Assembly: GCA_038329675.1 (NCBI GenBank)
Contig: JBBQNE010000001.1
Location: 1-61,376, forward strand
DNA: 61,376 bases
Direction: 5' to 3'
Origin: Hyphomicrobiales bacterium
GTDB taxonomy: Bacteria > Pseudomonadota > Alphaproteobacteria > Rhizobiales > Hyphomicrobiaceae
In this document: one piece after another, positions 42,566 to 45,242 of the stretch
Layout of the letters: each line of letters starts with the position of its first letter
Position numbering within the stretch: the first letter of the stretch is position 1
Position numbers and translations under genes: made by a program
Notes under the pieces: model-generated
What the model was told of the DNA's origin: nothing
Seen by the model: the letters and a program-made list of their open reading frames with translations, nothing else
The model's database searches: none

Positions 42566-45242
42566 TCACGATCCTCTGCGGCACCACGATCACTTTTTTC
42601 GGCACACGACCTTCGAGCGCCCGTATGACGGCTTCAAGTTTGAGAGCAGCGGCTTCGACGTCACCATTGCTCGCGTCCCGCGGCACCGTAATTTCGTCCC
42701 GTCGCTTTCCATTGACCTGTACGGCAAGCGTAATCACATCGTCAACGAGCAACCCCGCCTCCGCAAGCGGCCACGGTACATTCGCAATCAACGTGTTGTA
42801 GCCGAGCCGCGCCCAACCGTCCTCGGCGAGGTGCGGCATCATCGGTGCAATCATTACCATCAGGTGCTCGCCTGCCTCGCGTAAGGCCCAAGCCACATCG
42901 GCTGCTGGTTTGTCGCCAGCCCCGGTGAGCGCGGCTTGAAGGGCGTTCGCCAACTCATGGACCTGGGCCACCGCAACGTTGAAACGCAATCCAGCGATGC
43001 TCGATCCTACCGCATCAAGCGCGCGATGGACGGCTTTGCGAATTCGGACCGCGTCTTCGCCGAACGCGCCAAAAGGCATCGGAGGTTGAGCACCTGGCCT
43101 GGCTGCAACCGCTGCGATCTGGTCGACGATCCGCGACAACCTTTGGACGAATCGCCCCGCGCTTGAAACGCCAGCTTCGGTCCAGATGAAATCGCGCTCC
43201 GGCGGGCTGTCCGACAGCACGAACCAGCGCGCGCAATCGGCGCCGTAGTTGGCGATAATCTCGTCGGGATCAACGAGGTTTTTCTTCGACTTCGACATTT
43301 TTTCAATCGAGCCAATCGTGGCGGTACGCCCGGTTTTGGTCTCGATGGCCGTCCGCGACCCGCCTTCACCAGACAGCGTCACCTCCTCGGGCAACAGCCA
43401 GCGGCCGTCATCTGACTTATAAGTCTCATGCGTGACCATCCCTTGCGTAAACAAGGCCGCAAACGGTTCGCGTTGGCTGGAGACAGTGTCGGAGGCCTGC
43501 AATTCAAGATGCCCGGTGTCGATCAGCGCGCGCGTAAAAAAACGCGAATACAACAGGTGCAAAATCGCGTGCTCAATGCCGCCGATATACTGGTCGACGG
43601 GCAGCCAGTAGCGCGCGGCGGCCCGGTCAACCGGCGTCGTGGCGTCTGGCGCGGTAAAACGGGCATAATACCACGAGCTATCGACAAACGTGTCCATCGT
43701 GTCCGTTTCGCGCCGGGCCGGTTTTCCGCACGAGGGACACGCGACGTGTTTCCATGTCGGATGGCGGTCGAGCGGATTGCCGGGCACATCAAACGTGGCG
43801 TCTTCAGGTAGCCGCACGGGCAAGTCCGAATGCGGCACTGGAACAACGCCACACGCCTCGCAATGGATAATCGGAATCGGGCAGCCCCAATACCGTTGGC
43901 GCGACACCCCCCAGTCCCGCAATCGGTAAGTGACGCGCCGCTGGCCAACCGGGCGTCCACCAAGCATCGCCAATTCGAGCCGCGTCGCAACCTCGTCGAA
44001 GGCGGCCCGGGTGGTCAGCCCATCGAGGAAGCGGGAGTTCTTCATCACGCCATCGCCATCATAGGCGGTGTCGCCAACCTCAAAAGCGGCAACCTCGTCG
44101 GGCGGCGCGACGACCGTGACCACTGGCAGGTGGTACTTGCGCGCGAAATCGAGATCGCGTTGGTCACCCGACGGACAGGCGAAAATCGCGCCCGTCCCGT
44201 AGTCCATCAGCACGAAATTCGCCACCCAGATCGGCACTGTCAACGTCGGATCGAGAGGGTGCACAGCCGTCAACCCGGTATCGAACCCAATTTTTTCTGC
44301 CGTTTCGAGTTCGGCGAGCGACGTGCCCATCCGTTTGCATTCGGCACAGAACGCGGCAAGCTTCGAGTCACGGACGCCTGCTGCATGTGCTAGCGGATGG
44401 TCGGCTGCAACCGCGACGAACGAGGCCCCAAACAGCGTATCGGGCCGCGTTGTAAACACCTCGACCTCGGTCGGACCACCGGTCAGAGGGGCAGCGATCG
44501 CCCAACGGACCAACATGCCATCGGATCGGCCAATCCAGTTGGCCTACATCAGCCGCACTTTGTCTGGCCACGCCTTGAGCGTGTCGAGATCGGCCAAGAG
44601 CTCGTCGGAGTAGGCGGTAATTTTGAAAAACCACTGCGTCAGCTCGCGCTGCTCGACAAGCGCGCCCGACCGCCAGCCTCGGCCGTCGATCACCTGTTCG
44701 TTGGCCAAAACGGTGTTGTCGACCGGGTCCCAGTTGACCTTTGCCGACCGGCGATATGCGAGCCCTTTAGCCAGCATGTCGAGAAAAATGCGCTGCTGAT
44801 GGCGGTAGTATTCGGGCTCGCAGGTCGCGATTTCCCGCGCCCAATCGAGCGACAGGCCCATAGACCGAAGCTGTCGCTTCATCGTCGCGATGTTGGAACG
44901 GGTCCACGCGCCAGGATGCAGCTTGTTCTGCATGGTGGCGTTTTCGGCCGGCATCCCAAATGCGTCCCACCCCATAGGATGGAGCACGTTGAACCCCCGC
45001 GCCCGTTTATATCGGGCAAACACATCGCCCATGGCGTAGTTGCGGACGTGGCCCATGTGGATGCGGCCGGACGGGTAAGGAAACATTTCCAGCACGTAGC
45101 ATTTTGGCCGGTCAGCGGCGGCGTGATCGCCCCCATCTTGATCGGCTTTTACGTGGCTTGCCGTGCGGTAGGTTCCAGCCTCTTCCCAGGCTTGCTGCCA
45201 ATGAGTCTCTCGTTCGGGGGCATTATAGCGTTCGCTGGCCAT
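42552..45242 (-). pseudogene. leuS: leucine--tRNA ligase, a single frame interrupted by one in-frame TAG at 44544..44546
   Basis: ORFs 44544..45242 (HMGH motif, ends WPDKVRLM*) and 42552..44516 are in the same frame. The junction reads [20 protein letters not shown], where E. coli has MQRNWIGRS. The KMSKS motif is present. Combined length is 896 codons including the internal TAG and the terminal stop. Confidence 0.9.

Follow-up and report, generated by a model that had tools for sequence, protein, structure and literature searches.

The leuS gene lies on the minus strand (45242..42552) of the window, by which we mean the whole stretch of DNA that was analyzed (61,376 nucleotides, contig C1 of the source assembly). 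The gene comprises 896 sense codons and a terminal TGA, and translation shows that it is interrupted once, the sole internal stop being a TAG at codon 233 (CTA on the plus strand, 44544..44546). A preliminary description of this DNA had reported two leuS open reading frames that share one frame and are divided only by this TAG. Translation bears this out (44544..45242, minus strand, 232 aa; 42552..44516, minus strand, 654 aa) and adds the strand, which had been left unstated. The features of the locus are as follows.

42552..45242, minus strand: leuS, leucine--tRNA ligase; with X placed at the stop, residues 1-896 of the read-through product align to relatives at 55-83% identity; PF00133, PF13603, PF08264 and PF09334.
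44544..44546, minus strand: in-frame TAG, codon 233; the base in doubt is A at 44546, which is G in the Logan contigs of the public runs X1 and X2.
44547..45242, minus strand: upstream piece of 232 codons, which contains HMGH and the Rossmann fold as far as its first half (translation, PF00133).
42552..44516, minus strand: downstream open reading frame of 654 aa from the first ATG after the stop, with the editing domain, the remaining catalytic core with KMSKS, and the anticodon-binding and C-terminal domains.

Apart from the stop the gene appears undamaged, as had been claimed for it: its translation contains both HMGH and KMSKS, and all 896 codons align. In a 201-aa test window in which the stop is residue 101, PF00133 matches residues 1-106, and the family thus runs across the stop, while the PF13603 editing domain begins two residues after it (Pfam, E 2.5e-26). 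The HIGH-type and KMSKS motifs, the CP1 editing domain and the anticodon-binding domain that mark a bacterial LeuRS were all found, and by these predicted features the product is a bacterial leucine--tRNA ligase (class Ia). The one expected feature that the record lacks is an uninterrupted frame, because of the single TAG at codon 233; this failure probably belongs to the record and not to the gene, since independent contigs read CAG at that codon. Ten codons downstream of the TAG comes the ATG at 44516, and the 654-aa piece is already recorded as a separate protein (P0016) carrying PF13603, PF08264, PF00133 and PF09334.

The interrupted position is otherwise occupied by glutamine. Gln stands at the position of codon 233 in 11/11 aligned relatives (CAG in nine, CAA in two), within the block KVRLMQANWIGRS, which is invariant among these 11. 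The 201-aa stretch around the stop also aligns with solved LeuRS chains (E 4e-70), with the X opposite Gln221 of PDB 7nua_A. The earlier proposals that a conserved Gln had been replaced, and that a single CAG to TAG change accounts for it, are therefore upheld by the relatives and by the solved chain; judging from the aligned codons, the TAG would be explained by a single substitution, C to T in the coding strand and G to A in the plus strand. A leuS match was found in 29 of 30 relatives, none of which (0/29) has an internal stop in it, the remaining genome being G023 (69% complete), where no leuS match was found. In a search of a protein collection, the best match to the LeuRS was 80% identical and came from a Hyphomicrobium aestuarii MAG; judged by the names attached to its nearest LeuRS matches, the organism is Hyphomicrobium-like. 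No full-length LeuRS of the same species was found in that collection, so the protein search gave no independent check of the codon.

The genome record is a fragmented metagenome-assembled genome of 3.11 Mb in 212 contigs (84% complete, 1.2% contamination, 60.7% G + C). Its fragmentation is visible in the window itself, where prfA, the gene for RF1, is broken by the end of the contig: one piece occupies 60731-61375 on the plus strand (profile positions 8-223, 253 bits), and contig C127 opens with the C-terminal third (3-416; profile positions 223-360, 197 bits). The two contigs are probably neighbors in the genome, because prfA is divided between their ends.

Independent sequence for the site was sought in public sequencing runs. 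One search listed ten runs that contain all or part of the stretch, with 0.71 of the sampled words in X1 and 0.31 in X2; X1 and X2 come from one study, and none of the ten was an RNA run. Logan contigs of X1, X2, X10 and X3, which are contig-level data and not raw reads, were compared with positions 44000-45100. In X1, a 905-base contig with a depth of 4.3 covers 44000-44836 (837 bases) with two differences, 44546 A>G and 44750 G>C, and the whole of the X1 depth at 44546 (7.6/7.6, two contigs) reads G. In X2, a 126-base contig with a depth of 9.08 covers 44532-44657, and its sole difference is again 44546 A>G; over adjoining stretches, another three X2 contigs show 0 differences from the window, from which it follows that the same strain is present in X2. 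X10 and X3 contain only more distant relatives (90-95% alike), in which all depth at 44546 is likewise G. G at this position of the plus strand makes the codon CAG, and A is without contig support in each of the four runs (4/4). The preliminary description had reasoned that an independent assembly with CAG would turn the stop into a base-calling error, and the X1 and X2 contigs provide such assemblies.

Contigs drop rare variants, so those of X1 and X2 establish the presence and dominance of CAG but do not prove that there is no TAG. Nor is the X1 contig perfect, as it carries a singleton Arg165 to Gly change and continues into unlike sequence past 44836; X1 has no same-strain cover over 44837-44924. 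Because its same-strain contig spans only 44000-44836, the record was probably built from more data than X1 alone. An exact 41-base pattern with either A or G at the site was also searched for in metagenome_contigs and genome_contigs, and neither variant was found there.

The character of the few differences between the window and X1 is informative. The difference at 44750 falls at a first codon position and turns Arg165 of the window into Gly in the X1 contig, at a residue that is Arg or Lys in 11/11 relatives. Both differences between window and X1 are thus first-position changes at sites that are invariant or conservative in all 11 relatives. One private, damaging first-position change in each assembly (Gln233 to stop in the window, Arg165 to Gly in X1) fits low-depth noise or rare alleles. 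X2 also contains a 196-base contig (record 22) with 11 differences; by our own arithmetic, 9/10 of those listed at 44748-44862 (nine in the column of record 22) fall at third codon positions. This contig represents a second, diverged leuS strain in X2 over window positions 44748-44862 and points to a strain-heterogeneous population, and such heterogeneity accounts for the fragmented X2 contigs. Since genuine divergence, as in record 22, is mostly at third positions, the differences between the window and X1 resemble noise instead.

The assembly was then scanned for other in-frame stops of this kind. There were 6428 stops flanked on each side by 60 or more open codons, and 293 of these (TGA 150, TAA 83, TAG 60) passed a filter that required the codon likelihood of the frame to exceed that of all five others, by a margin above 4, both before and after the stop. 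This cut-off is post hoc, as it was chosen with knowledge of the leuS margins (4.66 and 8.69). A first filter based on GC3 had been dropped because it missed leuS itself, and the best-of-six-frames margin replaced it. Loci were retrieved for 180 of the 293 candidates (contigs C1-C68), and Pfam was run on 109, namely all 90 on contigs C1-C25 (975,024 bases) and the 19 TAG candidates on C26-C68, using windows of up to 100 aa on either side of an X. The scan covers in-frame stops, not frameshifts, and the count that it gives is a lower bound, because a stop can be caught only if it falls inside a Pfam family and has 60 or more open codons to either side.

A Pfam family was present in 59 of the 109 windows and crossed the stop in two, those of leuS and of a TGA in an amine-oxidase gene. 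In the other 57/59, families end before the stop, begin after it, or do both, the last being the ordinary picture of a gene boundary. Among the 34 TAG candidates tested (of 60), leuS was the one case in which a family crosses the stop. The amine-oxidase TGA lies outside the window (C13:15573-15575; locus L041:14364-14366), and PF01593 and PF13450 both cross it; the frame of this flavin amine oxidase shifts about 80 codons past the TGA, and a transposase-like open reading frame then follows, so that the gene looks like a decayed, multi-lesion pseudogene beside an insertion sequence. The leuS TAG is accordingly the only isolated in-frame stop among the 90 candidates in about 975 kb, from which we conclude that errors do not abound in the assembly as a whole. 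Across the genome, the candidates tested give no recoding signal. The scan also brought up, outside the window at C2:51802-53001 (locus L022:9930-11129), two tandem near-duplicate genes of the Uma2 family (PF05685, putative restriction endonuclease) in the same frame with a TGA between them.

The preliminary description had left four options unranked: a sequencing or assembly error, a nonsense mutation tolerated through a suppressor or readthrough, a second leuS copy, and a split enzyme. The present evidence favors the first of these and lends no support to the other three. Very probably, leuS in truth has CAG (Gln) at codon 233, and the TAG is a single-base fault of the genome record, either a consensus error or a rare allele. 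Against an error we counted the less likely case of a source sample in which TAG dominates. The nearest rival is a real but non-functional nonsense allele in part of the population (dying cells, relic sediment DNA or a recent mutant) that was picked by the assembler while the main population has CAG. Strain heterogeneity at leuS is evident in X2, where one contig is divergent and several are fragmented. Among spontaneous changes, C to T, as seen here on the coding strand, is the most frequent, and many assemblers accept a word only after two or more sightings, which favors a real variant over a random error. All X1 and X2 contig depth at 44546 is nevertheless G, and in an essential gene present as a single copy a null allele should stay very rare. 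We regard such an allele as unlikely, and its outcome for the function of the organism would be the same as that of an error.

A TAG that is both real and tolerated, whether through Gln readthrough or suppression or through an enzyme in two pieces (232 aa and a restart at ATG 44516), would agree with the lack of decay in the rest of leuS. tRNA-Gln is known to misread UAG at a low level, and a suppressor tRNA could lie in the missing part of the 84%-complete assembly. Independent contigs of the same strain have CAG, however. ARAGORN printed 42 tRNAs, none with the CUA anticodon that a suppressor would call for (one further line on C78, presumably a tmRNA, was counted but stands outside the 42); at 84% completeness, this absence falls short of proof. 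RF1 is present in its two pieces, the best match to the PylS profile TIGR02367 reached 27 bits against a cut-off of 178, and TAG is an ordinary stop in this genome, ending 71 of 509 long coding-like open reading frames (TGA 316, TAA 122). As regards a split enzyme, a natural two-subunit LeuRS exists in Aquifex aeolicus, according to the portion of PMC2377443 that cites Xu et al. 2002. A split of that kind should be conserved in related genomes, but 29/29 relatives with leuS are without an internal stop and 0/29 are split. By eye, and without a model of the initiation sites of this organism, no AGGA, GGAG or GAGG was seen in the 15 bases preceding ATG 44516; a restart there would lose nine conserved residues (ANWIGRSDG), and the break, lying inside the PF00133 core and just ahead of the editing domain, is at no obvious subunit boundary. 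A tolerated TAG is, on this showing, extremely unlikely. The least probable reading of all is an intact second leuS in the unassembled 16%, with the window copy a fresh pseudogene. An assembly 84% complete and in 212 contigs leaves room for such a copy. No second leuS was found in the window, as had been stated before, or anywhere in the 212 contigs, where the other matches are weak (long frames on C71, C33 and C70, E 5.6e-17 or weaker) and are taken to be paralogous class I synthetases. In no relative was a second leuS-level match found in a different region, and the window copy bears a single lesion and otherwise agrees with the independent contigs.

We therefore return to a fault of the record at a CAG codon. 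The depth of the organism at the leuS locus is only about 4 to 9 in the two runs with near-identical sequence, and at such depth one wrong or minority base can enter a consensus, here as G to A on the plus strand. The A at 44546 would thus have its origin in sequencing or assembly noise or in a rare allele, and the organism would make an ordinary full-length LeuRS from a CAG-bearing gene. Since this assembly has few isolated in-frame stops, one solitary error that happens to strike an essential gene is a rare event a priori; it was met here because a scan of this kind selects for such events.

The practical consequence is mainly one of quality control, and what is gained is a flag on the record. 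As it stands, the record risks annotation with a broken essential gene or with two fragment proteins, one of which (P0016) is already stored, and its TAG could mislead pseudogene counts, estimates of completeness and searches for stop-codon recoding. Were the TAG true, it would bear on the tolerance of nonsense codons in essential genes and on the modularity of LeuRS, and the evidence points away from this. We consider it highly unlikely that the organism has, in its only leuS, a real UAG in place of the invariant Gln233 and lives by Gln readthrough or with an enzyme in two pieces broken just before the editing domain; if it did, LeuRS would be naturally split a second time, in a Hyphomicrobium-like sediment bacterium and at another place than in a fixed two-gene arrangement.

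Set beside known systems, leuS shares its full domain set and motifs with the LeuRS of PDB 7nua/6q89 and 3zgz, and 7nua_A has Gln221 where the record has TAG. Amber suppression by supE-type tRNA-Gln (CUA) and the pyrrolysine systems offer a likeness in a UAG at a Gln position; the genome studied here differs from them in being without a CUA tRNA or PylS among its matches, in having RF1 and in using TAG as a terminator. With the LeuRS of Aquifex aeolicus, as it is described in the cited portion of PMC2377443, the shared trait is an enzyme in two polypeptides; that enzyme is a fixed natural gene arrangement, whereas here there is a one-codon break that is absent from the independent contigs and from 29/29 relatives. 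A further likeness is to the consensus errors and minority alleles of low-coverage metagenome-assembled genomes. The present case differs from these in that the assembly contains few other such lesions and in that the support is at the level of contigs rather than reads, and it resembles them in consisting of a single substitution at a depth of about 4-9, in the disagreement between assemblies of the same strain, and in the private damaging change that each of the two assemblies carries.
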